64,000 nucleotides of DNA from Thermodesulfobacteriota bacterium (GTDB lineage: Bacteria > Desulfobacterota_D > UBA1144 > Nemesobacterales > JAJCZQ01). The translations under genes were made by a program, and so were the position numbers. Below, one piece after another: positions 14,159 through 61,061 of this stretch (the stretch's first letter is position 1; the number at the start of each line of letters is the position of its first letter). The notes beneath the pieces were generated by a model. It was not told where the DNA came from. It made no database searches and was given only the letters and a program-made list of their open reading frames with translations. The stretch covers positions 352,001 to 416,000 of the forward strand of contig OZ244044.1 of the NCBI GenBank assembly GCA_965215275.1, read 5' to 3'.

Positions 14159-14246
14159 ACTTACAGAAAAATTCATAATTAACAGAAAATTTTTCTACAG
14201 CCTAAGATGACCAATATATCAAATATTGTGGAATCAATCCGTAAGA

Positions 14247-14432
14247 TTAGACATAAAAACGATTGGAAACTGATGTAGAATCTGAGGTAGTAACTTCTAT
14301 ATTTTCAACTTTTCTCTTTGACAAATTGTATGACAAATCTATCAAACTTTTTAAGTTGGGAGACAAGTACTTTTCCATTTTGGCAAGCAGTTCCTCCAGT
14401 TGAAATTCTATATTCTTGTTCTTTTTATCCAT
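14247..14432 (-). CDS. Small hypothetical protein
   Basis: 61-aa ORF with an AGGGGG SD. Confidence 0.45.
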   Translation of the reverse strand: MDKKNKNIEFQLEELLAKMEKYLSPNLKSLIDLSYNLSKRKVENIEVTTSDSTSVSNRFYV

Positions 14433-14572
14433 GTTTATAACCCCCTAAAAGTAATTCATCTATTATATATTGCGTGTTAATCAAAATCTTTAAACATATA
14501 ACTTATAAAATATTCCTCGCTGAATGGTTTCACCAATAACTCTTATTCTTTCCATGAACTAATCAAGGGAAT

Positions 14573-15976
14573 TCATAAGCCAGCCATATACAAATCAGCA
14601 AAAGGTTTGGTTAGTTCCTGCTTAATAGCCGCTATTTTATCATTGAAATCCTGCCCTTCCATTTCTTCATTATCAATTGGAAATTTATTCAAGGCAAACA
14701 AACATTCATCATCAGGGTTTTTCTTTACACGTACCTCCAACCACTTGAGAATATCTGCACTATGAGTGGCAATAACAACGTTCACCCCTCCTTTTGCCAG
14801 TTCAAACAAAGTCTCAGCCATGATCACCTGCCAAGACGGGTGCAAGTGTGCTTCTGGTTCATCAATGAAAAGAAAAGAACCTTTATCTATGACTTTGCGT
14901 TCAATAAGTAAGGCAAGTATACCGAGATTAACAACTCCCATAGCAGCCAGATGCAACGAAAAACTGCGTCCATTTTCCTGAAAACTTAACTCACCAATTT
15001 CAGAAATTGTAAGTTTTCCACCTATAACTTCTTTTGAAGTTAATTTTTCATACAACTCAGAAAAAGCTACATCCCCAGAATATTCCTCTTTCAGTGCTTC
15101 CGCCAAATCGTAAAAGTAACCTGGCACTCCAGTTAATCTTTGCCTTTCTGAAGATGAATAATAAAAACGGGGATTTATTCTACTGTTTTCCAATGCGGAT
15201 TTTAACTTCCAATATATGGGCGATTCAAGATATATGACTTTGGAATAATCCTGGAGTTGCCTAAGTCCAGTCCTTTCAATATTACAACGAACAAGATCAC
15301 CGTTTTGAAACTCAAATGTGCCAACATTATCAATAACGATTTTGGAAGCATCTTCTTTCCGCATTCTCATAGATGAGAAACTCGCCACTTGAAAATTGTC
15401 GATTAAATTCCCATAGACCTTGTTTTGTATGCCGTTTATAACGAATTCCTCAGCATTTGTTTTTTGGATTTCTTCATATAGTCGACCCAATTCCCTCTCT
15501 AAATCCTCTATGTCTCTTTTTATAACATCATTTTGCTCTGATAAAGGCCGCCATTGAACATCTTCTTTAAATTTTTCACACAGCTTCTTCAAACTGACCA
15601 CAGAAGTGCGAATCTTGGGTAGCTGTTCGTCAATTTCCTCAAAATCATCAATGGAACATGACTTAATTAGTTCCTCCATCTTTTTTATCTCGTCATTGAA
15701 AACAGACAATGAAAAATCGTTGCTCTTGTTATTCCATGTTCCCAATCTATCCAGACTGTACCGCAAAGGAGCTACTAAATCGTTAAAACATACTAAAGCA
15801 TGATCAGCATTCATACCGTCAAACAGCGAATACAGTAATTTTGATATGGTACTTTTGCTCGTATTGTTTGGTCCTGCAAATACAGTAAACTGCCCGATAC
15901 GAATTTCTGCATCAGACAATTTACCAAAATTTTCCACTTTGAGATTGAATGGCATTTTTTCTAAAAACAGTCTCAA
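14573..15976 (-). CDS. AAA_15/AAA_21-type ABC-like ATPase (defence-associated family)
   Basis: FAGPNNTSKST (variant Walker A), IDEPEAHLHP.WQ and IATHS. The start may be ATG 15955. Confidence 0.82.
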   Translation of the reverse strand: MRLFLEKMPFNLKVENFGKLSDAEIRIGQFTVFAGPNNTSKSTISKLLYSLFDGMNADHALVCFNDLVAPLRYSLDRLGTWNNKSNDFSLSVFNDEIKKMEELIKSCSIDDFEEIDEQLPKIRTSVVSLKKLCEKFKEDVQWRPLSEQNDVIKRDIEDLERELGRLYEEIQKTNAEEFVINGIQNKVYGNLIDNFQVASFSSMRMRKEDASKIVIDNVGTFEFQNGDLVRCNIERTGLRQLQDYSKVIYLESPIYWKLKSALENSRINPRFYYSSSERQRLTGVPGYFYDLAEALKEEYSGDVAFSELYEKLTSKEVIGGKLTISEIGELSFQENGRSFSLHLAAMGVVNLGILALLIERKVIDKGSFLFIDEPEAHLHPSWQVIMAETLFELAKGGVNVVIATHSADILKWLEVRVKKNPDDECLFALNKFPIDNEEMEGQDFNDKIAAIKQELTKPFADLYMAGL

Positions 15977-16062
15977 TATAACGGTGTATTACGATAATGG
16001 GACTCTCTATACAAATTGGCAAAAATAAAGATATTAGAATCAACGCAGAAATGACCGTTCAT
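15973..16062 (-). pseudogene. Truncated PIN-domain (DUF4411-like) gene stub
   Basis: ATG overlaps the ImmA stop. Translates MNGHFCVDSNIFIFANLY..., matching PIN strand 1 (x-x-D-x-N-I-F-I); stop after 29 codons. Confidence 0.55.
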
Positions 16063-17192
16063 AACCTTTTTTCTAATTCTTTGACTTGAGGTACGAGCTT
16101 TAGATCAAAGGATTTGCACAATCTATGCAAACCTATCTCTTCGTTGTAGTAAGCCTGAAAAAGTGCCTTAGTATAAATTTGCCCAAATTGATCAAAAGCC
16201 TCTTTCGCTCTATCTCTCGACGGTCCGCTCTCTTTCTTCTTTAGCTGATCTTGCATATTCGAGTATTCTATTTTCAGTTCTTTCTCAAATTCCAAATACT
16301 CTTCCTGGCTGATAATTTGCAAAGTTTGCAATCTGACAAGACATGCATACTTGCTGACATGAAATTTGTCAGCAAGTTTTTTCATACCTCGAATGTCGCT
16401 TATTTGGCTACCGGTAACTTCTTTCAAAAAATTCTCTGCAGGCATCAACACTTCACCTGCAAATTGATCACACTCCTTTTCCACCTCTTCATCGTGGACA
16501 TTCCAACCATCTATCTCATTTTCCTTTCTAATCAAATGTCCTAATTCATGTAACAAGGTGAAAGAGTATGCCTTCTTTGCATCGGAACTATTTACGATAA
16601 TAATAGGAAGTGTTGGGTGGTATGTTGATAATCCACGAAACTCCTCTTTTGCAACATGCGACCAACCCTTGTATTTGCTGGTCATAAAAACAAAAATCCC
16701 TTTTTGTTCAAGTTTTTCTTTCCAATCTGGAAATTCAAGGTTTTTGTCAACTCCCAGCCAGCTCCTAATCTTTTCTGCGTATTCTTTGTCCTTAAGGTTT
16801 GTTAATGGTTCAGGGGGCAAAAACGGAGATACAGGTTCATCCAAGTCCATCTGTATCTCAAGTATCAGACTGCGAAAGCGTTCCACTCGTGCTACGAGAC
16901 CACGCACTTTCCAGTTGGAAAATCTTGCAGGTCGTTTTACAAATTTGCGAAATACCGGTACGGATTTAGCAAAATCATATTTTTCCGGCAGTTTCTCTGA
17001 AACAAAGACCCACCGTGGTACTTTATATAATTCAGATAAGGTATCCAGCTGCTTGAAAGTTGGGTACTTTTCTCCCGCTTCAATATCTTTTATAAGAGGT
17101 ACTTTTTTTTCAACATGGTCAATATCCAGTGCCATCTGCTCACGGCACCTACACAATATATCAATGTTGACATTTTTAACTCTTATACTCAT
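16059..17192 (-). CDS. XRE-HTH + ImmA/IrrE family metallopeptidase
   Basis: N-terminal HTH (IEAGEKYPTFKQL), FTLLHELGH zinc motif and E.ECDQFAGEVLMP. Confidence 0.88.
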   Translation of the reverse strand: MSIRVKNVNIDILCRCREQMALDIDHVEKKVPLIKDIEAGEKYPTFKQLDTLSELYKVPRWVFVSEKLPEKYDFAKSVPVFRKFVKRPARFSNWKVRGLVARVERFRSLILEIQMDLDEPVSPFLPPEPLTNLKDKEYAEKIRSWLGVDKNLEFPDWKEKLEQKGIFVFMTSKYKGWSHVAKEEFRGLSTYHPTLPIIIVNSSDAKKAYSFTLLHELGHLIRKENEIDGWNVHDEEVEKECDQFAGEVLMPAENFLKEVTGSQISDIRGMKKLADKFHVSKYACLVRLQTLQIISQEEYLEFEKELKIEYSNMQDQLKKKESGPSRDRAKEAFDQFGQIYTKALFQAYYNEEIGLHRLCKSFDLKLVPQVKELEKRL

Positions 17193-20961: not shown

Positions 20962-20990
20962 TTGACACTACAGTAAAGCAGAAGTAAAAT
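20962..20990 (+). promoter_or_regulatory. sigma70 promoter of S8-Ig copy 1
   Basis: TTGACA-N17-TAAAAT, 9 nt before ATG 21000; conserved in all four paralogs. Confidence 0.7.
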
Positions 20991-20999
20991 ATCAACGTT

Positions 21000-23900
21000 A
21001 TGAAAAGTTCAAACATAAAAACACGTAGTTCCATTACCCCCCCCCGTGTATACCTGACCTTTCAGCCTGGTATAAGTATTCTGTAAGAACAATGTTTAAG
21101 ATAATCCCCCCCCCCCATCTAAGTCATTACTAACCTTAGTCTTTATTCTACTGAGTATCATGGTCATAGCTGCAAAAGGGCAGAGCAGCCTGGAAGAAAC
21201 ATTATCTGAATGCAGAGATATCAGTGCAGGTCTGGAAGATCCGTTATACGGATGTCAGTGGCATCTGAATAACACTGGACAGTTAAGTATTTCCGGAAAG
21301 AGAATAACAGCAGGAGAAGATATTAACGCAGAGGGAGTATGGAACGAAGAGGTATATGGTACTGGAATTAACGTAGCAGTTGTAAGTAATGGAATAGACC
21401 TTTCACATGAGGACCTTTCTGCTAAGGTCCGTTCGGAACTGAACTACAACTTTTCTGGAAAAGATAATTCAGACAGTTCAGAGTTAAGTGGTACACGAGC
21501 GGCAGGAGTAACGGCAGCGGCTGGATATAACGGACTGGGAACAAGAGGAGTTGCACCTGGTGCGAGTATATACAGTAATAAGTTAACAGGAGATCTCAGG
21601 GAATCAGACGCAATGGAAGCAGGGGAAGCAATGGTGCGTAATAAAGAAATAACTGCAGTATCCGTCAGCGACCGGGGATCTGAGGACGGAGTTTTTCTTC
21701 AGGGTGCTTCGGCTGAGTGGGAAGAGGGAGTGGAAGAGGGTATAAGGGAAGGGTTTTACGGCAGGGGAATATTTTACGTCCTGGGAGCAGGGGACGGACA
21801 TGAGAGCGGAGATCAGGCTAATTTTTCTGAATATTCCAATTACTACGGGGTAACAGCGGTGTGTTCAACGGACGGTTCTGGAAAGAAGAGCTTGTTTTCA
21901 GAAGAGGGAGTGAATCTGTGGGTATGTGCGCCTGGTCCTGATATAGCGACCACTGATAGCGACGACGATCACGCCGTGACGTCCGGAACTGTCCTTTCAG
22001 TTTCACGGGTCGCAGGTGTGGCGGCACTGCTGAGAGAGGTAAACGAAGACCTGAGCTGGAGGGATATAAAGCTTATACTTGCGGGTTCGGCACGGCAGAA
22101 CGACGTTCCTGACATTAGCTGGGAGACTGGAGCGGTAAAATACGGTTCCGACGTGGAAAGATACAGATACAGTTCGAAATACGGTTTTGGCGTGGTGGAC
22201 GCGGAGGCGGCCGCAGAGCTTGCCGGAAGCTGGAAAGGAGTGGGAGAAATGAGGACCGTTACAGCTTCCTCGGATAATGAACTGACGATCCCTGATGGAG
22301 AAGGAGAGGCGGACGGGGTCCTTACCTCCAGACTTATGATTTCGGACCTGGAGGAAATATTTACGGAGTTCGTTGAGGTAGAACTCGTTCTCTCGTGTGA
22401 CTGCCTGCAGGACCTCAATATACGGATAACCTCTCCTTCCGGGACAGTATCGGAACTTGTGCGGGAGTCTGCCAGTGAGTTTGTAAGGGGATCTTCGAAT
22501 GAAGAAAACGACTGCGTCAGTTACCTGGGGAAAAAACATCGTTTCGGTTCGGCAAGACACCTCGGGGAAGACCCTTCCGGAGAATGGACCCTTAAGATAT
22601 ATAATACTGCTTCCGGAGATGAAGAAGATACAGAAAATACCGTTACCCTGCACTCATGGAGCATCAGGGTATACGGGCACGGGAAGGGGGATGTTTTAAC
22701 GGAACCCGGCAGTGAGATCACTGCCAAGGCTTTAACTTTGGGTAATGTTCCTGGTGGTAGGCTGACCTGGACGCAACATAAGCTGGTAAACGCAAGGTTA
22801 TTCGAGGCAGCCGGAGGCAGGCCGCCGTATACTTACAGTTTAGCTCCTTTACCTCCTGGATTGAATTTTAACGGAACCACCAGAATTATAAACGGGAGAC
22901 CGACCGCTGCAGGTGACACCGACGTTCAGTATACGGCAAGAGACGCAAATAACGATACGGCACGGAGTGACTTCGTTATAAGGATAACGGCGAACGCCGC
23001 GCCGGTTTTTGGCAGCAAGACGGTTGCTGCTCAGGTGTACACGGCAAGGAAAGCAATAGAACCATTGGAACTTCCCGAGGCAACGGGAGGGGATAGAACT
23101 TTAACTTACAATATAAGTGGTAACGTCAGGGGTATAGGGTTGAACTTTAACCGTAACACAAGGATACTGAGCGGAACGCCCACCAGTGTTACGCCTGGTA
23201 TTACAGCCGTTTATACCGCCACTGACGCAGATGGAGATACTGCCGAACTGAGGTTCAATATACGGGTAAGACATCTGAACGACATACCGACCTTCGGCAG
23301 CCAGATGGTAGATGATCAGAATTGGGTTAACGGCAGCGCGGTAAGGCTAACGCTGCCTCGCGCAAGAAACGGGAATGGAACGTTAACCTACGGTATAACC
23401 CCTGCTTTGCCTGATGGACTGGACTTTGATCCTGGTACCAGAGTGCTGAGCGGAACACCGACCGCTGCGGCACCTGAGAACACTTACACGTATACGGTAA
23501 CGGACAGTGATAACGATATTCATGAAAGTGATTCTGACAGTCTGACCTTCAGGATCACTGTATCAGCGGACGCAATGCCGACCTTTAGCGGTGAGACGAC
23601 GGATGATAAGGAGTACATAGCAGGAAGTCAGATAACGCCGGTAACGCTGCCCGTGGCAACATCAGGAAATACCCCATTAACTTACGATATAACCCCTGCT
23701 TTACCGGATGGACTGGACTTTGATGAAAACACCCGAGTGCTGAGCGGAACACCGACTGCTGCAGCACCTGAGAATACTTACACGTATACGGTAACGGACA
23801 GAGACGGTGATACTGACAGTTTGACTTTCAGGATCACGGTGTCAGCGGACGCAATGCCGAGTTTTGGCAGTGCGACGATAGAAGACAAGGTGACCGTTAA

Positions 23901-24596
23901 CGGCGTTACGGCAGTAATGGAAACACTGCCTCTTGCAACAGGAGGGAACGGAACGCTGACTTACAGTTTAACTGATGCCGGTTCAAATGCTTTGAATTTA
24001 TTTGCCGGACTGGACTGGGATGACAACACCCGGGTGCTGAGCGGAACACCCAATATCGGTTCAGCGCTGCTTCATCTGCTTCCTCGAACCGAGACTTACA
24101 CGTGGACGGTAACGGACGAAGATGGAGACACGGACGATCTGACGTTCAGTATAATTATAGAAGCAGACAGCGATCCGGATTTTGGCAATGAGATGATAGC
24201 AGATCAGGAGTACATAACAGGAAGTCCAATAACGCCAGTAACCCTGCCTGAGGCAACGGGAGGTAATCCACCGTTAAGATACAGTATAACGCTCGTCTGC
24301 CAGCTGGATTGAGGTTTAACAGTAGCACCCGGGTTATAAGAGGCACGCCCGAGAGCGCGTCACCCGAAACTGATTACACGTACACGGTAACGGACAGCAA
24401 TGAAGACACGAACGATTTGACTTTCAGGCTCAGAGTAGCAGTTCCTTCTGCCAGTGGTTCAGGAGGGGGAGGAGGATGTGCGGTCTCGGATCAGAGCAGC
24501 GTCGTTCCTGATATTTTTGGAGCAGTGGCATGTCTGATACTTATACCCGTGTCAGCAGTGATCAGAAGGAAGAGAAGATCTCATATAAAGACGTAG
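21000..24596 (+). CDS. Copy 1: inactive S8 (kexin-like) + P-domain + Ig-like repeat surface protein with polyGly-Cys C-terminal sorting tail; out of frame at poly-C tracts and at ~24292
   Basis: ORFs 21160..24312 and 24309..24596 join across a 1-nt frameshift. The signal peptide frame begins at the C11 tract (21106-21116); C9 tract at 21037-21045. Motifs DPLY..QWHL, WRD...IL, YGFG.VDA, LPxGL.F...TR.ISGTPT repeats and GGGGGGCAV..RRKRR. Confidence 0.8.
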
Positions 24597-32538: not shown

Positions 32539-32603
32539 TTGACATTCAGTTAAGAAAAAGTATAATAGTACGACAATGAAAGTTTCTGCTACCCCCCCCC
32601 CCC
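32539..32603 (+). promoter_or_regulatory. Consensus sigma70 promoter, ATG-AAA and C12 tract upstream of the defence operon
   Basis: TTGACA-N16-TATAAT, ATG at 32576, C12 at 32592-32603. Confidence 0.65.
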
Positions 32604-32937
32604 GCAAAAATCCTGTAGCAAACACGACTCCCTTAACTGGGATAACAGAGTTTTATTTCACTGGTATAGCTTAAAATCTTTACGAGCAATAATCAGTAAT
32701 AGCGTAAATTCAACAGCAATATATCCACCATTTAATAACAACCGGGGATTTTATACTACACTAGGTATAGCTTCTGGAGTGAAGTTTCAGAATAGAAGTT
32801 TTTGGAATGGTTATGTTCATAAGCATGTGTCAAGTTATTTATGTATTTGTTAGAAAAAGAAGGTTACTTCATAAAAAACAAAATTTAAGCAAGTTATTCA
32901 GTGGAAAAATTTTTATAAATAAACAGGAGAACAAAGA

Positions 32938-39307: not shown

Positions 39308-39514
39308 TTTGGATAAGGATTATTTGGAATCCGGTTTAGCATAGGAAACATCCTCTTAACAAGTTTTGCTCAATATCATTGATTAAAATCAGACTGCCTT
39401 TTCTCCGCTTTTGAAGCCATGTAATAGAATATTAGAAATCCTCTAGCACTAATTCTTAAGCATATATTTCAAACAATCCTGAAAATCCCATTTGACAATT
39501 CAACTTTATAACGT

Positions 39515-39868
39515 TATTTTAAAAAAAAAGATAATTTAAATTAAAAAAACTTTCTATTTTAAAAAAAAAGATAATTTAAATTAAAAAAACTTTCTATTTT
39601 AAAAAAAAAGATAATTTAAATTAAAAAAACTTTCTATTTTAAAAAAAAAGATAATTTAAATTAAAAAAACTTTCTATTTTAAAAAAAAAGATAATTTAAA
39701 TTAAAAAAACTTTCTATTTTAAAAAAAAAGATAATTTAAATTAAAAAAACTTTCTATTTTAAAAAAAAAGATAATTTAAATTAAAAAAACTTTCTATTTT
39801 AAAAAAAAAGATAATTTAAATTAAAAAAACTTTCTATTTTAAAAAAAAAGATAATTTAAATTAAAAAA
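39515..39868. repeat. Perfect 40-bp tandem repeat, about 8.8 copies, upstream of fic
   Basis: Unit aaaaaaaaagataatttaaattaaaaaaactttctatttt with no spacers. Confidence 0.95.
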
Positions 39869-44322: not shown

Positions 44323-45264
44323 ATGTCAAAGAAAGCACCTGGGAAATCATACAGGAAAGGGATATCGTTAGTAAAGTTATTCAGGAAATTCCCTGACGAT
44401 GCTGCTGCAGAGGAGTGGTTTGTAAAACGGAGGTGGGGAAAGGAACCCGTATGTCCGTATTGCGGGACAAAAAACGTTCAAACAGGGACTGGTCATAAGA
44501 CGATGCCGTACAGGTGCAGGGAAAAAGGATGTTCGAAATGGTTCAGTGTAAGGAGCAGGACCGTTATGCAGTCTTCTAATATCAAGTATCAGGCTTGGGC
44601 AGTGGCAATATATCTATTTGCCACGTCATTAAAGGGAGTATCAAGTATGAAGCTGCATAGAGATCTGGATATTACGCATAGGTCAGCATGGCATTTATCG
44701 CATCGTATCAGAGAGGCATGGAACAGAGAAGAACTGAAAGTATTTACAGGTTCAGTGGAGGCAGATGAGACGTTCATAGGTGGAAAAGAGAGAAACAAGC
44801 ATAGCGACAAGCGTAGTCATACACGAGGACCTGGAGGGAAGTCCATTGTTGCAGGAATGAAGAACAGAGAGACAAACAGAGTAATAGCACAACCGGTTTC
44901 TGAACGTAGTAAAGAGGAAATACAGGGTTTTATAGTTAAGAACGTAGGTAGTGGAGTAAAAATATATACCGATGATCATAAAAGCTATACAGGGTTGCCT
45001 TATGAGCATGAGAGCGTGAATCATAGTGTAAGGGAGTACGTTAAAGAGCAGGCATATGTAAACGGAGTGGTATCATTCTGGGCAATGTTAAAAAGAGGAT
45101 ATACCGGCACGTACCACAGAATGAGTAAAAAGCATTTAAATCGTTATGTAAATGAGTTTGCGGGGAGGCATAATATAAGAAGACTGGACACGGAAGATCA
45201 GATGGGAACAATAGCAAGGGCAATGTATGGAAAGACCTTGCCTTATAAAGAACTGATAAGGTAA
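44323..45264 (+). CDS. IS1595-family transposase
   Basis: Zn ribbon CPYC..C...C, VEADETFIGG, IYTDD, VNHS..EYV and HL.RYV.EF..R.N.R motifs. Confidence 0.92.
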   Translation: MSKKAPGKSYRKGISLVKLFRKFPDDAAAEEWFVKRRWGKEPVCPYCGTKNVQTGTGHKTMPYRCREKGCSKWFSVRSRTVMQSSNIKYQAWAVAIYLFATSLKGVSSMKLHRDLDITHRSAWHLSHRIREAWNREELKVFTGSVEADETFIGGKERNKHSDKRSHTRGPGGKSIVAGMKNRETNRVIAQPVSERSKEEIQGFIVKNVGSGVKIYTDDHKSYTGLPYEHESVNHSVREYVKEQAYVNGVVSFWAMLKRGYTGTYHRMSKKHLNRYVNEFAGRHNIRRLDTEDQMGTIARAMYGKTLPYKELIR

Positions 45265-47584: not shown

Positions 47585-49600
47585 TATATCAGCCACATCA
47601 TTGGTTTCTAAATCTGTAGCTCTAATCGTATACTCAGTCTCCTCCAACGCTTCCATAGGTGTGCCAGTCATTCTCCAACGGGGAATACTGATGCTCAATC
47701 CACGAGGAAGAACAGTAGGAATTACACGGTAACTTCTTCTCCCAGACCCTCCTGTTAGAGGAGGTAAATCTAATGGTGTTATCTGAACTCCTTCTGTATA
47801 AACCTGATTAGGGATCGTTGCACCGCTAAAGGTTAGATCATGATGTTTAGGACCTGTCTCACTGCCAAGGGATGTAAAAATATCCCCCTTCCCGTGCCCG
47901 TAGACCTTAATGCTCCAGGAGTGTAAGGTAAAAGTATTTTCTTCATCTGCTTCATCTCCGGAAGCAGTATCGGATATATCAAGGGTCCATTCTCCGGAAG
48001 GGTCTTCTCCGAGGTGTTTAGCCGACCCGAAACGATGTGTTCTTCTTACATAACTGATCTCAGCGTCTTCTTCCTCACCTGAAAATTCCCGGACAAGTTC
48101 AGAAACTGTACCGGAAGGAGAGGTTATCCGTATATTGAGGTCCTGTAAGCAGTCACACGAGAGAACGAGTTCTACCTCAACGAATTCCGTAAATATTTCC
48201 TCCAGGTCCGAAATCATAAGTGTGGAGACAAGGACCCCGTCCGCTTCTCCTTCTCCATCAGGGATCGTCAGTTCATTATCTGAAGAAGCTGTAACGGTCC
48301 TCATTTCACCAACGCCTTTCCAGCTTCCGGCAAGCTCTGCGGCTGCTTCTGCGTCTACCACGCCAAAACCATACCTGGGACTATAATTATATCTTTCCAC
48401 GTCAGAACCGTATTTAACGGCTCCTGTCTCCCAGCTCGGATCAGAAACGTCGTTCTGCCGTGCTGAACCCGCAAGTATGAGCTTTATATCCCTCCAGCTC
48501 AGCTGTCCGTTTATCTCTCTCAGCAGTGCCGCCACCCCTGCAACCTGTGCTGCTGAAAGGAACGTTCCGGAAGTTACAACGTAATCGTCGTTGTTATCAG
48601 TGGTTACAATATCAGAACCAGGTGCACATACCCATAGATTTACTCCCTCTTCTGAAAAAATACTCTTCTTTCCAAAGCCGTCCGTTGAACAAACGGCCGT
48701 TACTCCGTAATAGCTGGAATATTCAGAAAAATTAGCCTGATCTCCGCTCTCATGCCCGTCCCCTGCTCCCCGGACATAAAATATTCCCCTGCCGTAAAAC
48801 CCTTCCCTTATACCCTCTTCCACTCCCTCTTCCACTCCCTCTTCCCACTCAGCTGAAGCACTCTGAAGAAAAACTCCGTCCTCCCGTCCCCGGTCGCTGA
48901 CGGACACTGCCGTTATTTCATTGTTGCGGACCATTGCGTCCGCTTCCCCGGGATCACCGGATAACCTGTAACTGCATACATTCGCACCGGGTGCAACTCC
49001 CCTTGCTCCCGATCCGTTGTATCCAGTTGCTGCAATTACTCCTGCCGCTCGTGTTCCGGTAAAGGATGAACCGTCAGACAGATCAACGCTTTCTGAACTG
49101 TTTTCTTCAGAACTGTTTTTTCCAGAAAGATCATAGTTCAGTCCGGAACGGACGTTTGCAGAAAGGTCCTCATGTGAAAGGTCCTCATGTGAAAGGTCCT
49201 CATGTGAAAGGTCCTCATGTGAAAGGTCCTCATGTGAAAGGTCCATACCGTCACTTACTATTGCTACATTAATTCCGGAACCGTATACGCCATCGTTCCA
49301 CACTCCCTCTGCGTTTATATCCTCTCCTGCAGTTATTTCCTTTCCTGAATAAATAAACTGCCCAGTGTTCTTCAGATGCCACTGACATCCGTATAACGGA
49401 TCTTCTGTGTCTGCACTGTTACCTCTGCATCCGGAGAACGGGTCCTTTATGCTGCCCTGTCCCCTTGTATCAACGGATATAAAACACAGAAGAAAAAAGA
49501 CAAAGAAAAGTATGAACCGTCTGCCGTTCCGGCGGGAACTGCCCGTTAAACTACGACGTTGATGGGGGGGGGGATAGAACTCATCATGTTTTTCATACAT
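45719..49600 (-). CDS. Copy 2: inactive S8 + P-domain + Ig-like repeat surface protein with polyGly-Cys sorting tail
   Basis: Full 1293-aa ORF. C10 tract (G10 at 49564-49573) before the signal peptide; promoter TTGACA-N17-TAGAAT at 49635..49607. Confidence 0.85.
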   Translation of the reverse strand: MYEKHDEFYPPPHQRRSLTGSSRRNGRRFILFFVFFLLCFISVDTRGQGSIKDPFSGCRGNSADTEDPLYGCQWHLKNTGQFIYSGKEITAGEDINAEGVWNDGVYGSGINVAIVSDGMDLSHEDLSHEDLSHEDLSHEDLSHEDLSANVRSGLNYDLSGKNSSEENSSESVDLSDGSSFTGTRAAGVIAATGYNGSGARGVAPGANVCSYRLSGDPGEADAMVRNNEITAVSVSDRGREDGVFLQSASAEWEEGVEEGVEEGIREGFYGRGIFYVRGAGDGHESGDQANFSEYSSYYGVTAVCSTDGFGKKSIFSEEGVNLWVCAPGSDIVTTDNNDDYVVTSGTFLSAAQVAGVAALLREINGQLSWRDIKLILAGSARQNDVSDPSWETGAVKYGSDVERYNYSPRYGFGVVDAEAAAELAGSWKGVGEMRTVTASSDNELTIPDGEGEADGVLVSTLMISDLEEIFTEFVEVELVLSCDCLQDLNIRITSPSGTVSELVREFSGEEEDAEISYVRRTHRFGSAKHLGEDPSGEWTLDISDTASGDEADEENTFTLHSWSIKVYGHGKGDIFTSLGSETGPKHHDLTFSGATIPNQVYTEGVQITPLDLPPLTGGSGRRSYRVIPTVLPRGLSISIPRWRMTGTPMEALEETEYTIRATDLETNDVADIEFRIRIRAAADVPDFGDTQVRDQTFGNGRPIRLGMPVADGGNGNLNYSITPALPAGLTFTSNNRQISGTLNVAPNMLPLTETYTYKVTDSDSDTDDGDSDTLTFSYTIEANSVPSFSETIPDQTYVQGTSANLPVTLPEATGGNGTVSYSLTPVRLPAGLDFDENTRVISGTPTETIAAPGRTYTYRAMDDDLDTGTRTFSITITALSFDGQVSSPVLYLAERPVTPLTLPAATGGTAPYTYSLTPAPPAGLTFDRTTRVISGTPTAATPLKTYTYTVTDGNGTAVEVMFDLAVRAHFSGVEIQGKVYTVGTAVMETLPEATGHNGTVTYSLTPVLSSIGLSFDPATRVISGTPTATQNARTYTYTATTGAGGPARTLMFHITVRNEPNTIPSFGGEMIEDKEYIAGIPITPFVLPEATGGNGNLTYSLTPGLPDGLDFNETTRTISGTPTAATSETDHTWSAADEDNEMEGLTFSITVEEDSRPEFGSDMIEVHVYSGSPIRLPAATGGNAPLRYSIMPPLPPELRLNETTGRISGTPRSASTRTYMYTVTDRNGDTDDVSFMLSVTVPPPTSGNGGGGGGCAVSDQSSAASDIFGAVACLMLIPVSVVIRRKRRSRINA
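49161..49244. repeat. 15-bp tandem repeat x5.6 encoding (DLSHE)n in copy 2
   Basis: gaaaggtcctcatgt repeated; a single unit in the other three paralogs. Confidence 0.92.
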
Positions 49601-49821
49601 TCTTGTATTCTACTTCCGTTCTGATGTAATGTCAAGTATGAACTTCTTTTTCTTTTCTTTCCTGCAATGATAAAAATATTCAGGATGTACGGATCATTCC
49701 CTTTTTTATCCCGTTCACTGTAATTGACGGTATTCAGTTTCCACTGATAATAATAAAGGGTAAAATACAGCCTGTAAACCGTTCAGGGTAATACCCATTT
49801 TTCAGAGGAGGTTCATAATAA

Positions 49822-51412: not shown

Positions 51413-52420
51413 TGGTGAATATACTTTACCATAAGAAGGTATTTACAGAAAAGGAACTGTTGTTATATGTAGGTCTATCTGCTGGCAACCGTTGTCGGTC
51501 CGTATTTTTTTAGTTTTATCAAGTTTTCAGATTTGTATTATTTACAGTTACAGGTTATCATATAAAGCTAACTAAACGTAAAAAGGTGTATACGTATAGA
51601 TTAAAAAAGGGAATTATATAAAATAGTAAACAAGGTATCAACAGGAACAGGATAATGTATAGAGATAATTAAGGTTTTCACTTGATAAACCGGCAGTTTG
51701 AGTTCATGGGGATGTTCCCTGGCAAGAGGTCAGCGGAAAAACGGTTTGAAAGGCCGTTATGTAGAGACGGGAGATATTGGCGTCAGTGTCCGAAGTGGCA
51801 GTATAACGGCAACGGGTAATATATCGTTTCAGGAAAAGGTTATTGGCAGTATACCTGACAACCGCAGGTTTGAAGGTATTGTCCGGTCGTAAAACGGGAA
51901 GGTATACGGGAACTGTGCAGAAAACGGGTCGGTTTTTTCCGCACGGGACAGGAAAGGGTCTGAAGAGCAGTCTGATTATCATTTAAAGTAACAGAAGGAA
52001 CACGGGGAGGAAGCAGAAAGGCAAAGTCATCAGGAACAGACGGGAGGGTCATGGTAAAGGCAACTAAAACCATAAAAAGTGAGGCATCATAAGGTATGAC
52101 GGACGGAAGTGCATGTCCATACAAAGGGACAGAAAGTTTCCGGTCTGCGTTGCAAGAGGTTTTGCAGGAATGTATCACAAGACGTCAGGGAAACATTTAC
52201 AAAGATGTACAGATGAGCATGCAGGAAGGCGTAACAACGGAGCATTGCCGACCGTGGATCAGGTCGAAGACATGATCAGGGGGTCGCGTGGCAATAGAGA
52301 TCAAATACTGTTGATGAATGATCCCTACATCCTGAATTATTTTTATCATTGCAAGAAAGGTAAAGAAAAAGAAATTCATACTTGACATTCGTTCATAATA
52401 CAAAGTAAAATATCAATGTT

Positions 52421-55400
52421 ATGAAAAGATCAAATATAAAAAAGCGTATCTCCATTACCCCCCCCCCCGTGTATACCAGACCTTTCAGTTGTACACGGGT
52501 ATCCTGCAATGACAATGCCTGAGCTTATCCCCCCCCCCATCAACGTCATAGTTTAACGGGCAGTTCCCGCCGGAACGGCAGACGGTTCATACTTTCCCTT
52601 GTCCTTTTTCTTCTGTGTTTTATATCCGTTGATACAAGGGGACAGGGCAGCATAAAGGACCCGTTCTCCGGATGCAGGGGCGTCAGTGCAGATACGGAAG
52701 ATCCGCTGTACGGGTGTCAGTGGCATCTGAAGAACACGGGGCAGCTTGGTTTTTCCGGAAAAGCAGTAACAGCAGGAGAAGATATAAACATAGAGGGAGT
52801 GTGGAACGAAGACGTATATGGTTCTGGAATTAACGTAGCAGTAGTAAGTAATGGAATAGACCTTTCACATGAGGACCTTTCTGCAAACGTCCGTTCCGGA
52901 CTGAACTGGAGTTATTCCGAAGAAAACAGTTCTGAAAGCGGTGACCTGTCTGATATTTCATCCTTTACCGGAACACGAGCGGCAGGTGTAATAGCAGCTT
53001 CTGGATATAACGGACTGGGAGTAAGAGGAACTGCACCTGGTGCGAGTATATACAGTTATAAGTTAACTGATGATATCAGGGAAGCGGACGCAATGGATGC
53101 AAGGGATGCAATGGTCCGTAATAAGGAAATAACTGCAGTATCGGTTAACGACTGGGGACCGGAAGATAAATATTCTCTTCATCAGGCATCATCTGTCTGG
53201 GAAGAAGGAGTGGAACTTGGAATAAAGAAAGGGTTTTATGGGAAAGGAGTGTTTTACGTCCGGGGAGCAGGGGACGGGCACGAGAATAACGATCAGGCTA
53301 ATTTTTCTGAATATTCTAATTACTACGGAGTAACTGCCGTTTGTTCAACGGACGGCTTTGGAAAAAAGAGTGTATTTTCAGAAGAGGGAGTAAATCTATG
53401 GGTATGTGCACCTGGTTCTGATATTGTAACCACTGATAACAACAACGAATACGTTGTAACTTCCGGAACATTTCTTTCAGCTTCACAGGTTGCAGGGGTG
53501 GCAGCACTGCTGAGAGAGGTTAATGGAGAACTGAGCTGGAGGGATATAAAGCTTATACTTGCGGGTTCAGCACGGCAGAACGACGTTTCTGATATTAGCT
53601 GGGAGACTGGAGCTGTTAAATACGGCTCTGACACGGAAAGATATAAATATAATCCTAAGTATGGTTTTGGCGTGGTAGACGCGGAAGCAGCTGTAGAACT
53701 TGCCAGAAGCTGGAAAGGCGTTGGTGAAATGAGAACCATTACAGCTTCTTCCGATAATGAACTGACAATTCCTGATGGAGAAGGAGAAGCAGATGGGGTC
53801 CTTGTCTCCAGACTTATGATACCGGACATGGAAGAAATATTTACGGAATTCGTTGAGGTTGAACTTGTTTTTTCTCATGACCGATTACCGGACCTTAACA
53901 TACAGATAACCTCTCCTTCCGGGACAGTATCGGAACTTGTAAGGGAGTTTTCAGTTGAGGAAGAAGACGCTGAGATCAGTTACCTGAGAAGAACACATCG
54001 TTTCGGGTCGGCTAAGCACCTCGGAGAAGACCCTTCCGGAGAATGGACCTTAAAGATATCTGATACTGCTTCCGGAGATGGAGAAGATGGGACCTTACAC
54101 TCCTGGAGCATTAAGGTATACGGGCATAAGAAGGGGGATACCGCTGCAGACCTTGCTAAGGAGATAACTACTAAAGCTTTAAATTGGGGCGGACAGACAG
54201 TTCAGGATCAGGTGTACAGAGTAGGAACTCAGATAGCACCGTTACAGCTGCCTGAGGCGACCGGGGCAGAAGGAATAACGTACAGTATAAAGCCTGGTTT
54301 ACCTGCTGGGCTGGAGTTTAACGATACCACCAGAGTTATAAGCGGAACCCCAACTAAATCGCAGTCTAATGAACGTTATCAAATTGTTGCCAGAGACGCA
54401 GACGGGAACGTGAAGGGTTTAGCGTTCCATATAAGGATAAGGTTCCGTAACTCCACGGTACCGAGTTTCAGCGATACCATCCCGGATCAGAACTATGTAA
54501 CGGGGAGATCAATAACGCCACTGGTGTTCCCTCGTGCAACGGGAGGGGATGGTCAGTTAAGGTACACTTTTGACGGCACTTTAACTAACTTACCAAATGG
54601 ATTGAGCCTTTCCAGGAATCCGTTCAGGATAATTGGAACACCAGGTAGTGGTAGTGCGGGGACAAGTACCTGGCAATATACCGCTACTGACACAGACGGG
54701 GATACTGCTACACTTGAGTTCAGGATAAGGATAAGAGCTGCAGCTGACGTTCCGGACTTCGGCGATACGCAGGTGAGGGATCAGACGTTTGGTAACGGCA
54801 GACCAATAAGGCTGGGAATGCCTGTGGCAGATGGCGGGAATGGAAATTTAAATTACAGTATAACTCCTGCCTTGCCTGCTGGATTGACCTTTACCAGCAA
54901 CAACCGACAGATAAGCGGGACATTGAACGTTGCTCCAAATATGCTGCCTCTGACTGAAACCTATACCTACAAGGTAACTGACTCTGACTTGGATATTGAT
55001 GACGGTGATTCTGATACTCTGACCTTCTCTTATACGATAGAAGCTAATTCAGTGCCGAGTTTCAGCGAGACTATCCCTGATCAGACATATGTTCAAGGGA
55101 CATCGGCAAACCTTCCGGTAACGCTGCCTGAGGCAACGGGAGGTAATGGAACGGTAAGCTACAGCCTGACCCCTGTTCGTTTACCAGCCGGACTGGACTT
55201 TGATGAAAACACCCGGGTTATAAGCGGAACACCAACCGAGACCATAGCTGCTCCTGGTCGAACTTACACGTATAGGGCAAGGGACGATGATCTGGACACG
55301 GGTACTCGCACCTTCTCTATTACGATAACGGCCCTGTCCTTTGACGGGCAGGTATCTTCTCCTGTTTTGTACCTGGCAGAAAGACCAGTAACACCATTAA

Positions 55401-56581
55401 CGCTGCCTGCTGCTACGGGAGGTACTGCTCCGTATACCTACAGTCTGACCCCTGCCCCACCTGCCGGATTGACCTTTGACAGAACCACCCGGGTTATAAG
55501 CGGAACACCGACTGCTGCAACGCCTTTGAAGACCTATACGTATACCGTTACAGACGGTAACGGAACTGCGGTGGAGGTGATGTTCGATCTTGCCGTAAGA
55601 GCACACTTTTCAGGCGTTGAGATACAAGGCAAGGTGTATACGGTCGGGACGGCAGTAATGGAAACGCTGCCTGAGGCAACTGGACATAATGGAACGGTAA
55701 CGTACAGTTTAACTCCTGTTTTATCTTCTATTGGATTGAGTTTTGATCCTGCTACCCGGGTTATAAGCGGAACACCGACTGCTACACAGAATGCGAGGAC
55801 CTATACGTATACTGCTACTACCGGTGCAGGTGGACCTGCTCGAACTTTGATGTTCCATATCACTGTAAGAAATGAACCCAACACAATACCGAGTTTCGGC
55901 GGTGAGATGATAGAGGATAAGGAATACATAGCAGGAATTCCGATAACACCGTTCGTGCTGCCTGAGGCAACGGGAGGGAATGGAAACTTAACTTACAGTT
56001 TAACGCCTGGTTTACCTGATGGACTGGATTTTAACGAAACCACCAGAACTATAAGCGGGACACCGACTGCTGCAACGTCTGAGACTGATCATACATGGAG
56101 CGCTGCTGACGAGGATAATGAAATGGAAGGGTTAACGTTCAGTATAACAGTGGAAGAGGACAGCAGACCGGAATTTGGCAGTGATATGATAGAAGTTCAT
56201 GTGTACAGTGGGAGTCCAATAAGGCTTCCTGCTGCAACGGGAGGGAATGCACCGTTAAGATACAGTATAATGCCTCCCTTACCTCCTGAATTGAGATTGA
56301 ACGAAACCACCGGAAGGATAAGTGGCACACCCAGGAGTGCATCAACAAGAACTTACATGTATACGGTAACGGACAGGAATGGAGATACAGATGATGTGAG
56401 TTTCATGCTCAGTGTAACGGTTCCACCACCAACGTCAGGTAATGGCGGAGGTGGAGGAGGATGTGCCGTCTCGGATCAGAGCAGCGCTGCTTCTGATATT
56501 TTCGGAGCAGTGGCATGTCTGATGCTTATACCCGTGTCAGTAGTTATCAGAAGGAAAAGAAGATCTCGGATAAATGCATAG
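52421..56581 (+). CDS. Copy 3: inactive S8 + P-domain + Ig-like repeat surface protein; out of frame at poly-C tracts
   Basis: The main frame is open from 52523 (ORF track starts at 52799) and includes the signal peptide. C11 at 52458-52468, C10 at 52529-52538; promoter TTGACA-N18-TAAAAT at 52382-52411. Confidence 0.82.
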
Positions 56582-60100: not shown

Positions 60101-60736
60101 AACCTGTAACTGTATATACTCGCACCGGGTGCTACTCCTCTTGTTCCCAGTCCGTTATATCCAGTAGCTGCAATTACACCTGCCGCTCGTGTTCCGGTAA
60201 AGGATGAACCGTCAGAAAGATCAACGCTTTCTGAACTGCTTTCTTCAGAACTGTTTTTTTCAGAATAACTCCAGTTCAGACCGGAACGGACGTTCGCAGA
60301 AAGGTCCTCATGTGAAAGGTCCATTCCATTACTTACAACTGCTATATTAATCCCGGAACCGTATACGTCATCGTTCCACACTCCCTCTATATTTATATCT
60401 TCTCCTGCAGTTATTTCCTTTCCTGAATAACTTAACTGCCCAGTGTTCTTCAGATGCCACTGACATCCGTATAACGGATCTTCCGTTTCTGTACTGATAC
60501 CTCTGCATTCAGATAACGTTTCTTCTAAGCTGCTCTGCCCTTTTGCAGCTATTACCAGTATAAACAGAAGAAATAAGACTAAAGAAAGGATTGACTTAGA
60601 TGGGGGGGGGTATTATCTTAAACATTTTTCTTATAAAATACTTATACCAGACTGAAAGTTCACGTATACACGGGGGGGGGGTAATGGAACTGCGTGTTTT
60701 TGTTTTTATGTTTGGATTTTTCATGAAATTTTTCAT
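57115..60736 (-). CDS. Copy 4: inactive S8 + P-domain + Ig-like repeat surface protein; out of frame at the second poly-C tract
   Basis: The main frame is open from 60612 (ORF track starts at 60381). G9 at 60602-60610, G10 at 60672-60681; promoter TTGACA-N18-TAAAAT at 60775..60746. Confidence 0.82.
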
Positions 60737-61061
60737 AACACTGATATTTTACTTCGTATTATGAACGAATGTCAAGTGTAATTTCCTTTTCTTTCCTTTC
60801 CTGCAATGACAATGATATTCAGGATGCACGGATCATTCCCTTTTTTTTCCCGTTCACTGTAACTTGCGGTATTCAGTTCCCACTGATAATAATAAAGGGT
60901 AAAATACAGCCTGTCAACCGTTCAGGGTAATCCAAAAAATATGTATAAGAATGAATAAAGAAAACAATACCAGGACCTCCGATCAATGTAGAGTTTGGCC
61001 GCCGTACCTGCAATACCGACCGGTAGATCATCAAAGGGCCTGAAAGTAAACAAAAGCAAGA

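Follow-up and report, generated by a model that had tools for sequence, protein, structure and literature searches.

In 28 members of a family of furin-like S8 paralogs, two serial poly-C tracts lie upstream of the predicted signal peptide, and the DNA between them is, as judged from its sequence, an eroded second promoter-ATG-tract cassette and a copy of the first. We put the chances at about even that these stacked cassettes together form an AND gate controlling full expression and that an internal start codon (A2) serves as a low-level bypass. Directly observed were the frame logic of the tracts, the homology of the cassettes, a catalytic triad that has been lost, and a tract 2 whose length differs by one base from one public run to another. 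The window, i.e., the whole stretch of DNA that was analyzed (64,000 nt), represents positions 352001-416000 of an assembly that consists of a single 1,990,023-nt contig with a completeness of 99.87%. Among its SmpB relatives that carry a name, most belong to Ca. Dadabacteria or Thermodesulfobacteriota (67-77% identity), and the organism is accordingly called Dadabacteria-like here. The leaders of the four family copies in the window, together with a stand-alone cassette, were found to be organized as follows (A1, first start codon; P1, promoter upstream of A1; P2, its relic between the tracts):

52382..52411, plus strand: P1 of copy 3, TTGACA-18 nt-TAAAAT, sigma-70-type, 11/12 consensus, predicted from sequence
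52421..52457, plus strand: A1 of copy 3, followed by 12 codons to tract 1
52458..52468, plus strand: tract 1 of copy 3, C11; the linker-frame length is C10
52469..52528, plus strand: linker of copy 3, one frame open and two closed, with homology to the promoter-ATG cassette
52477..52505, plus strand: P2 relic of copy 3, CAGACC-17 nt-TATCCT, 7/12
52509..52522, plus strand: stop/start junction of copy 3, where the ATG at 52509 overlaps the TGA at 52510; a further TGA at 52520
52515-52517, plus strand: A2, internal start of copy 3
52529..52538, plus strand: tract 2 of copy 3, C10; in frame at C11 or C8
52539..52642, plus strand: remainder of the predicted signal peptide of copy 3 (from translation), basic stretch and hydrophobic core (52586-52630)
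52643..56581, plus strand: gene body of copy 3, S8 domain without the triad, P-domain, 8 He_PIG repeats, and tail
20962..21116, plus strand: leader of copy 1, P1, A1 (21000), C9, linker, A2 (21092), and C11
within 20962..21116, plus strand: P2 relic of copy 1, CTGACC/TATTCT
60602..60775, minus strand: leader of copy 4, P1, A1 (60736), C10, linker, A2 (60625), and C9
within 60602..60775, minus strand: P2 relic of copy 4, GTGAAC/TATTTT
49564..49636, minus strand: leader of copy 2, a single promoter-ATG-C10 cassette
32542..32603, plus strand: stand-alone cassette, TTGACA-16 nt-TATAAT-9 nt-ATG-C12, before an unrelated short frame

The preliminary description had reported two C-tracts about 60 nt apart in copies 1, 3, and 4, and these were found at the lengths given: C9 and C11 in copy 1 (21037-21045 and 21106-21116), C11 and C10 in copy 3 (52458-52468 and 52529-52538), and C10 and C9 in copy 4 (60681-60672 and 60610-60602, minus strand), with gaps of 60, 60, and 61 nt, respectively. 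The lengths that it had called for from the first ATG were also reproduced (C10 for tract 1; C9/C12 in copy 1 and C8/C11 in copies 3 and 4 for tract 2), as was the OFF state of all three copies, each being out of frame from the first ATG. In copy 3 the tract lengths add up to the ON sum (11 + 10 versus 10 + 11), yet the TGA at 52520-52522 shuts the compensating frame, again as described. P1 was conserved as TTGACA-17/18-TAnnnT-9-ATG in 28/28 double-tract paralogs. The A1 codon of copy 3 lies 9 nt past the -10 box, is devoid of a Shine-Dalgarno sequence, and may serve as a near-leaderless start. An extra ATG at 52416, 5 nt before 52421, opens 2 codons only.

The runs of C/G were counted across the genome. 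A total of 139 runs of at least 8 nt were detected, and the counts by length were 787 (5 nt), 78 (6 nt), 0 (7 nt), 6 (8 nt), 68 (9 nt), 32 (10 nt), 18 (11 nt), and 15 (more than 11 nt), unlike the genome-wide A/T runs, whose counts dropped smoothly with length. Because no C/G run of 7 nt was present compared with 68 of 9 nt, the long C tracts are beyond chance expectation. Over half of the 139 long runs (77) sit in the leaders of the S8 paralog family, and each of the 28 tract pairs spaced 45-75 nt apart in the genome was found in an S8 leader. Closely spaced pairs were absent from 18 of 20 relatives; the other two gave 5 and 1 matches, which were mostly low-complexity contig ends. Two relatives were rich in C9 (288 and 207 overlapping matches versus 274 here), and a search of these two for closely spaced tract pairs returned 0. 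Loss of mismatch repair was rejected as the cause of the long tracts, since open frames for MutS (868 aa) and MutL (617 aa) are both present. In this the genome is unlike C. jejuni, which is not known to have MutS/MutL mismatch repair.

Public runs were then used as an independent view of tract length, through a comparison of assembled contigs in which X1 to X4 derive from one study and the variation was seen at tract 2 of copy 3. This tract was C11, the in-frame length, in run X1 and C10 in X2 and X3; since the C11 and C10 forms differ between runs with near-identical flanks, the tract-length variation is considered real. The X1 contig with C11 had a depth of 587, within the range of its single-copy neighbors (494-720), and a neighboring contig of 2166 nt matched the window without a single difference in X1, X2, and X4. 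Over 11.6 kb, four indels were detected: (i) the copy-3 tract 2; (ii) two 3-nt insertions; and (iii) a 1-nt loss from an A-run on a multi-copy contig. The X2 contig carrying C11 + C10 had a depth of 177 compared with 419-557 for its neighbors, a drop that hints at mixed tract lengths; no such drop was seen in X3 (96 versus 104-110). For tract 1, a single contig of depth 4 with two additional C residues was found in X5, and this contig is possibly a paralog.

It is very unlikely, in our judgment, that these patterns stem from homopolymer sequencing error or from simple decay, by which the genes would be either in frame or pseudogenes and no switching would occur. An assembly that resolves many repeats into one contig points to the use of long reads, the platform of the public runs is unrecorded, and the C-terminal tail described below is absent from 5/57 paralogs, copy 1 included, each of which would fit error or decay; against them stand the gap at 7 nt in the C/G run lengths, the completeness of the assembly, and the 52/57 gene bodies that are open as far as the tail. 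Furthermore, the C11 + C10 state of copy 3 in the window was repeated in X2 and X3 and the C10 of copy 2 in X4 and X6, each in independent contigs. Control runs pointed the same way, as frame-break-like junctions were found at only 4/272 A/T runs of at least 8 nt and 0/78 C/G runs of 6 nt. Within intact frames of at least 200 codons were 22/139 long C/G runs, 154/272 long A/T runs, and 62/78 C6/G6 runs. Sequencing error is thus an unlikely source of the tract lengths. An early in-frame homopolymer of about 8 nt or more sets the reading frame in these genes, as in SSR translational phase variation; the definition of phase variation also includes reversibility at a high rate, according to the accessible text of PMC11868660.

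The frame logic was examined with the ATG 9 nt past the -10 box (A1) as the start and with tract lengths of 9 to 11, giving nine combinations. The frame from the first ATG was open in exactly one of the nine combinations in 28/28 double-tract genes, because both wrong frames hit a stop before tract 2 in all 28. Shuffled linkers reproduced this pattern at 16% per gene, and the 28 genes do not represent 28 independent cases because the paralogs are related and exchange leaders. The open frame of the linker had no stops in 24 distinct 57-nt sequences joined by 106 substitutions, whereas about 7 sequences with stops were expected by simulation (P = 0.005 for the zero-stop outcome). Purifying selection on the linker peptide was looked for and not found, as synonymous changes were not in excess (10 versus 17.6 simulated); the linker is stop-free yet without this excess, and we therefore describe its frame as kept open and its peptide as not conserved. 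The A1 segment was also stop-free up to tract 1 in 28/28 genes, and its length differences were mostly multiples of 3 (insertions of 6, 12, and 18 nt), with one 1-nt exception. In single-tract paralogs such as G000:652586, this segment joins the signal peptide directly and no internal ATG is present; thus, A1 must be the start in such genes. These sequence patterns support translation from A1 through both tracts. With one of nine combinations in frame, the pair is likely a two-key random switch that leaves most copies off.

In the present assembly 1 of the 28 double-tract genes is ON, 7 have tract 1 alone at the right length, 4 have tract 2 alone, and 16 have neither. When expected counts were taken from the lengths of 62 other tracts, the observed values of 8 for tract 1, 5 for tract 2, and 1 for both compared with 8.1, 9.5, and 2.7, respectively, and 9.3 ON genes would be expected at one third. 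Single-tract genes were ON in 4/21 cases (Fisher p = 0.15 versus the doubles), or in 6/21 (p = 0.03) if the ATG 6 nt after the -10 box is used, as for copy 2 and one sister. The earlier proposal that double tracts lower the ON frequency is therefore consistent with 1/28 against 2.7 expected, but the separation from single-tract genes is weak.

The assignment of the inter-tract DNA to a second cassette was based on its promoter-like and start elements. When the P2 and P1 spacers were compared, the mean score was 10.7 versus 6.4 ± 0.4 in 200 shuffles, of which the highest reached 7.4 (12 distinct spacers). The -35-like hexamer of P2 (n = 28) was CTGACC in 11 genes, CTGAAC in 7, TTGACC in 3, and other sequences in 7; the -10-like hexamer (n = 28) was TAnnnT in 22, TGTTTT in 5, and CACAAT in 1, with its A missing in 5/28. 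A consensus promoter scan of copy 3 called P1 and did not call P2. The A2 codon was found 9 nt past the -10-like hexamer in 28/28 genes, the same distance as for A1, and the internal ATG that the preliminary description had noted between the tracts was retained and in the open frame in all 28. Part of this invariance comes from the method, since A2 served as the anchor of the alignment (17/57 columns are invariant). The first wrong-frame stop was within 8 nt of A2 in 28/28 genes, lying 2-8 nt before A2 in 27 and 5 nt after the first base of A2 in one; copy 3 has the stops of both its wrong frames no more than 5 nt from A2, one of them as an ATGA overlap. Since A2 is kept in all 28 genes with a wrong-frame stop within 8 nt, the gate may leak and give off, low, and high states. 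The claim that each tract must be right on its own thus holds for translation from the first ATG (28/28), whereas a strict binary AND was not established because A2 is cassette-derived, is retained throughout, and has a stop adjoining it.

A strict AND, in which P2 and A2 are non-functional remnants, A1 is the start for all protein, and any wrong tract yields none, was considered doubtful. The intact P1 in 28/28 genes alongside an eroded P2 and the open frame of the linker agree with such a gate, as does a GAC-to-GAA change in 7/24 linker sequences that damages the -35 of P2 yet is a conservative Asp-to-Glu substitution. The lack of a Shine-Dalgarno sequence at A2 points in the same direction; the genome uses Shine-Dalgarno sites 5-11 nt from starts, A1 is also without one, and small peaks of -10 boxes were found genome-wide 6 and 9 nt before starts. 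It is less easily reconciled with the retention of A2 in 28/28 genes though neighboring codons vary, with the final T of the P2 -10, which falls at a third codon position and is invariant, or with the stops that adjoin A2 in all leader subtypes. In addition, tract 2 was in frame in 3/5 genes with TGTTTT as the P2 -10 compared with 2/23 others, as if an in-frame tract 2 mattered where P2 is intact; this comparison is post hoc and weak (p = 0.027).

The converse, which we regard as unlikely, is that translation starts mainly at A2 and tract 2 alone switches the gene on or off, with tract 1 only tuning the level, either within an upstream mini-gene or above the P2 -35, by coupling or by promoter geometry in a sabA-like manner. 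With A2 as the start, the signal peptide would have an ordinary length, while initiation at A1 puts the hydrophobic core no earlier than residue 52 (residue 52 in the sole natural ON double) compared with residues 3-30 in the single-tract and tract-less paralogs. The distance from the end of tract 1 to the P2 -35 position is 8-12 nt, the commonest state of tract 1 (16/28) is the one that stops beside A2, and P2 scores 9-10/12 in three paralogs, all in favor of A2 as the main start. Left unexplained, however, are the stop-free linker in the A2 frame (the P = 0.005 above) and the single-tract paralogs with A1 only. The rheostat of sabA, moreover, is a T-tract that alters DNA structure, as far as the available part of PMC4081817 describes it, whereas the tracts here are C-tracts; of the two features of a sabA-type rheostat, the leaders have a tract just above the -35 position and do not have a T/A-tract beside an active promoter.

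As both starts are supported, we infer that full output depends on an AND gate and that a low-level bypass probably exists beside it. According to this preferred reading, a strong P1 would produce a near-leaderless mRNA that is read from A1, and slipped-strand changes in both tracts would set the frame. A tract 1 of the wrong length would stop translation ahead of tract 2, which would therefore be unable to compensate. When tract 2 is right and tract 1 wrong, ribosomes that stop 2-8 nt from A2 may yield some protein. In E. coli, coupling without a Shine-Dalgarno sequence occurs across UAAUG and AUGA junctions and across gaps of a few nucleotides, as presented in the accessible portion of PMC9955659; the stop and start here similarly overlap or lie a few nucleotides apart with no Shine-Dalgarno sequence, and unlike the coupling described there, the stop position would be set by a slipping tract. 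A weak P2 transcript could be an alternative source of the bypass, and output would be off, low, or high. Stacking would leave about one tenth rather than about one third of the copies fully ON and make the ON state short-lived. Out of about 50 non-catalytic surface proteins with a membrane anchor, each cell may then display a small and shifting selection, which could serve as bet-hedging against host, predators, or phages. The possibility that the linker forms an RNA hairpin or acts as a frameshift stimulator was considered and rejected, as no conserved RNA structure was found (mean folding z +0.24 for 28 linkers; the consensus is a 4-pair stem). In the five leaders tested, A2 accessibility was unaltered by tract-1 length.

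The family comprises 57 genes (58 tblastn matches) that divide by leader into 28 double-tract, 21 single-tract, and 8 tract-less paralogs. The four window copies share a domain order of S8, P-domain, and 4-8 He_PIG repeats, with 8 of these Ig-like repeats in copy 3, and were without a Pfam match to an autotransporter barrel. Furin was the best match among solved structures (E = 2e-40), and furin and kexin were closest. Like the S8B proteases furin and kexin, the paralogs pair an S8 domain with a P-domain; unlike these, all three triad residues are replaced in 24/27 scorable doubles, and He_PIG repeats and an anchor-like tail follow. The sites of the catalytic Asp, His, and Ser are occupied by Ser, Thr, and Phe in copy 3. 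The catalytic His was found in 0/27 scorable doubles and 2/21 singles, and the full Asp-His-Ser triad in 1/21 singles, 6/8 tract-less paralogs, and 7/7 aligned outside relatives. Because of this triad loss, the switched genes encode mostly pseudo-proteases, and their products are likely to be surface-anchored binding proteins or decoys. Subtilases include the non-catalytic CspC of C. difficile as well as the subtilisin-like NalP; the match to a CspC pseudoprotease model was weak and far under the cut-off. A C-terminal tail with a Gly-rich-Cys segment, a hydrophobic segment, and a basic segment was detected in 52/57 paralogs, and its match to sorting-signal models of the Synerg-CTERM and MYXO-CTERM type was weak (for Synerg-CTERM, E = 0.09 and 12.8 bits, where the cut-off is 22.5). 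An N-terminal hydrophobic segment was identified by hydrophobicity scan; the signal peptide is predicted only. Gene callers may mis-start such genes and label non-catalytic proteins as proteases.

A quick tree was built from 55 paralogs and 3 outgroups, with 3 hits left out. Most tract-less genes were near the base, one clade grouped 24 doubles with 6 singles, and 3 doubles fell among singles. This suggests that cassettes were lost and swapped, although gene conversion may blur the tree. Beyond this genome, distant matches to the family were found in 6 of 20 relatives (1-2 each, 27-33% identity), 25 family loci (42-53% identity) were identified by a genome scan, and 4 distant loci (42-46% identity) by a scan of JGI metagenome proteins; the leader motif gave 0 matches in JGI metagenomes. 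When ON-state leaders were sought in other assemblies, 22 of the 23 matches were to the present genome and no natural ON leader was found elsewhere, the sole non-self match (protein P0140) beginning downstream of the tracts.

In repeat-driven phase variation a gene usually has a single tract, about a third of whose lengths are ON, and the stacked poly-C gate is a variation on this known process. A close coding example is nalP of Neisseria meningitidis, whose poly-C is ON at lengths of 7, 10, and 13, i.e., in steps of three (PMC3723659, available text). Within the same source, nalP and mspA resemble the present genes in having poly-C inside the coding sequence of a secreted protein and differ in having one tract per gene, compared with two serial tracts, intervening stops, and 57 paralogs here; NalP is an autotransporter and an active protease, whereas no autotransporter domain and no triad were found here. 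The poly-G/C tracts of C. jejuni have a modal length of 9 in the accessible part of PMC3401435, as here, and the Campylobacter loci are likewise many per genome and mostly translational switches (PMC3401435 and PMC6321876, as accessible). The portions of these two papers that were available contained no serial double gates. Between 5 and 81 putative phase-variable genes per Campylobacter genome are given in the available text of PMC6321876, compared with 139 tracts of at least 8 nt here, although the counting rules differ. Helicobacter pylori sabA also carries two repeats on one surface-protein gene, one promoter-adjacent and one coding, with graded and on/off effects (accessible sections of PMC4081817 and PMC2715451). 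Its upstream intergenic T-tract tunes transcription, whereas both repeats here are C-runs in the frame of the first ATG, and the present pair arose, by our reading, through the stacking of one promoter-start cassette on another. Two short tracts also occur in a gonococcal gene (PMC1097732, accessible text), which was rejected as a precedent because its design is different. A search of the open-access literature, supplements aside, turned up neither a description of in-frame tracts arranged in series and separated by stops nor one of phase variation in the present lineage. What is new here, on the evidence of the alignments, is the recognition of the inter-tract DNA as an eroded second promoter-ATG-tract cassette.

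With an ON share of about 1/3 per gene, a large family can be expressed only so sparsely. Placing two tracts in series, separated by stops, would bring this share to about a ninth, double the switch-off rate, and make the deep-OFF states long-lived, thereby offering a simple route to antigenic-variation-like display that needs no special machinery. With the gate, the known range of pathogen-style contingency genomes would also come to include an uncultured phylum that has been little studied, and the 28 copies, with single-tract and tract-less sisters in one genome, make the logic and origin of the gate testable with reporters. More tentatively, it is possible, though not probable, that a portable promoter-ATG-poly-C cassette stacked on itself forms a two-input, three-level dial on the 28 paralogs. 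On such a dial, tract 2 would set whether any protein can be made, and tract 1 would set the level, i.e., high by read-through, low by a stop beside A2 followed by reinitiation, and off by early abort. Recombination between C-runs would gain, lose, and swap cassettes, and the outcome would be a sparse, combinatorial display of pseudo-proteases that requires neither a recombinase nor a mutual-exclusion regulator. The poly-C loci would in this case outnumber the Campylobacter maximum cited in the available text, with the same caveat that the counting rules differ. The stand-alone cassette at 32542-32603 was judged by eye to resemble the inter-tract cassette, and similar cassettes were found in front of other genes.

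Loss of the catalytic triad (Asp, His and Ser) was found to follow tract number across the S8 paralogs of the whole chromosome. The triad was intact in most of the tract-less paralogs; in those with a single tract, the His position was mostly occupied by Arg; and most of the double-tract paralogs had lost all three residues. The nearest S8-domain relatives outside the host genome (L031-L054) were mostly from Dehalococcoidia genomes, at 42-53% identity, and the full triad was retained in all seven of those that were aligned.

The long tracts (C/G runs of at least 8) and the S8 paralogs were also examined for strand. The + strand was the C strand for 109 of the 139 long tracts on the chromosome and carried 43 of the 57 S8 paralogs, including all nine (9/9) within 0.86-1.21 Mb of the contig (G000:C1), where GC skew suggests that the + strand is mostly the lagging strand.

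In copy 2 (window 49590-49600, -) and one sister (G000:C1:1533605-1533644), two ATGs lie 4 nt apart in differing frames, 6 and 10 nt downstream of the -10 element, with one ATG in frame with the current tract length and the other out of frame. Because the two ATGs are in different frames, two of the three tract lengths could be ON in these genes. The copy 2 tract was also C10 in the matching public contigs of sequencing runs X4 and X6. In copy 1, a second frameshift was detected within the gene body at a site without a C-run (window 24270-24312, +); the frame ends ahead of the final Ig repeats and of the anchor tail, both of which resume in a different frame.

Long tracts were also detected in other positions and families, as follows:

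Window 32542-32850, +: stand-alone promoter-ATG-C12 cassette, immediately downstream of tmRNA and ahead of an 82-codon frame
G000:C1:19539, 20737, 31545, 1068992, 1899949, 1901573, 1914729, 1964984: mid-gene tracts of a second paralog family
G000:C1:518332, 605571, 668426: tracts within the bodies of S8 genes (on the coding strand, G13, C9 and C17, respectively)

The 82-codon frame resembles by eye the N-terminus of a tract-gated methyltransferase-like gene (G000:C1:1814694), and a DUF6361/helicase island lies downstream. Tracts of the second family are C9-C11 and mostly about 80-100 codons past the ATG. The S8 body tracts may toggle C-terminal parts on or off.

Among relatives, overlapping C9 matches numbered 288, 207 and 108 in three genomes of the host's order (G005, G011 and G007, respectively), and C9 runs were absent from several other relatives; on this distribution, putatively contingency-rich genomes are recurrent within the order.

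Defence-like and mobile genes were found close to the S8 paralogs:

Window 11582-17192 and 44323-45264: TIR-STAND NTPase gene, AAA/AbiEii-like and IrrE-like genes, and IS1595-family transposase

In addition, a 40-nt A/T-rich tandem repeat (window 39510-39850; nine copies, each with an A9 run) is followed immediately downstream by a Fic-domain gene.
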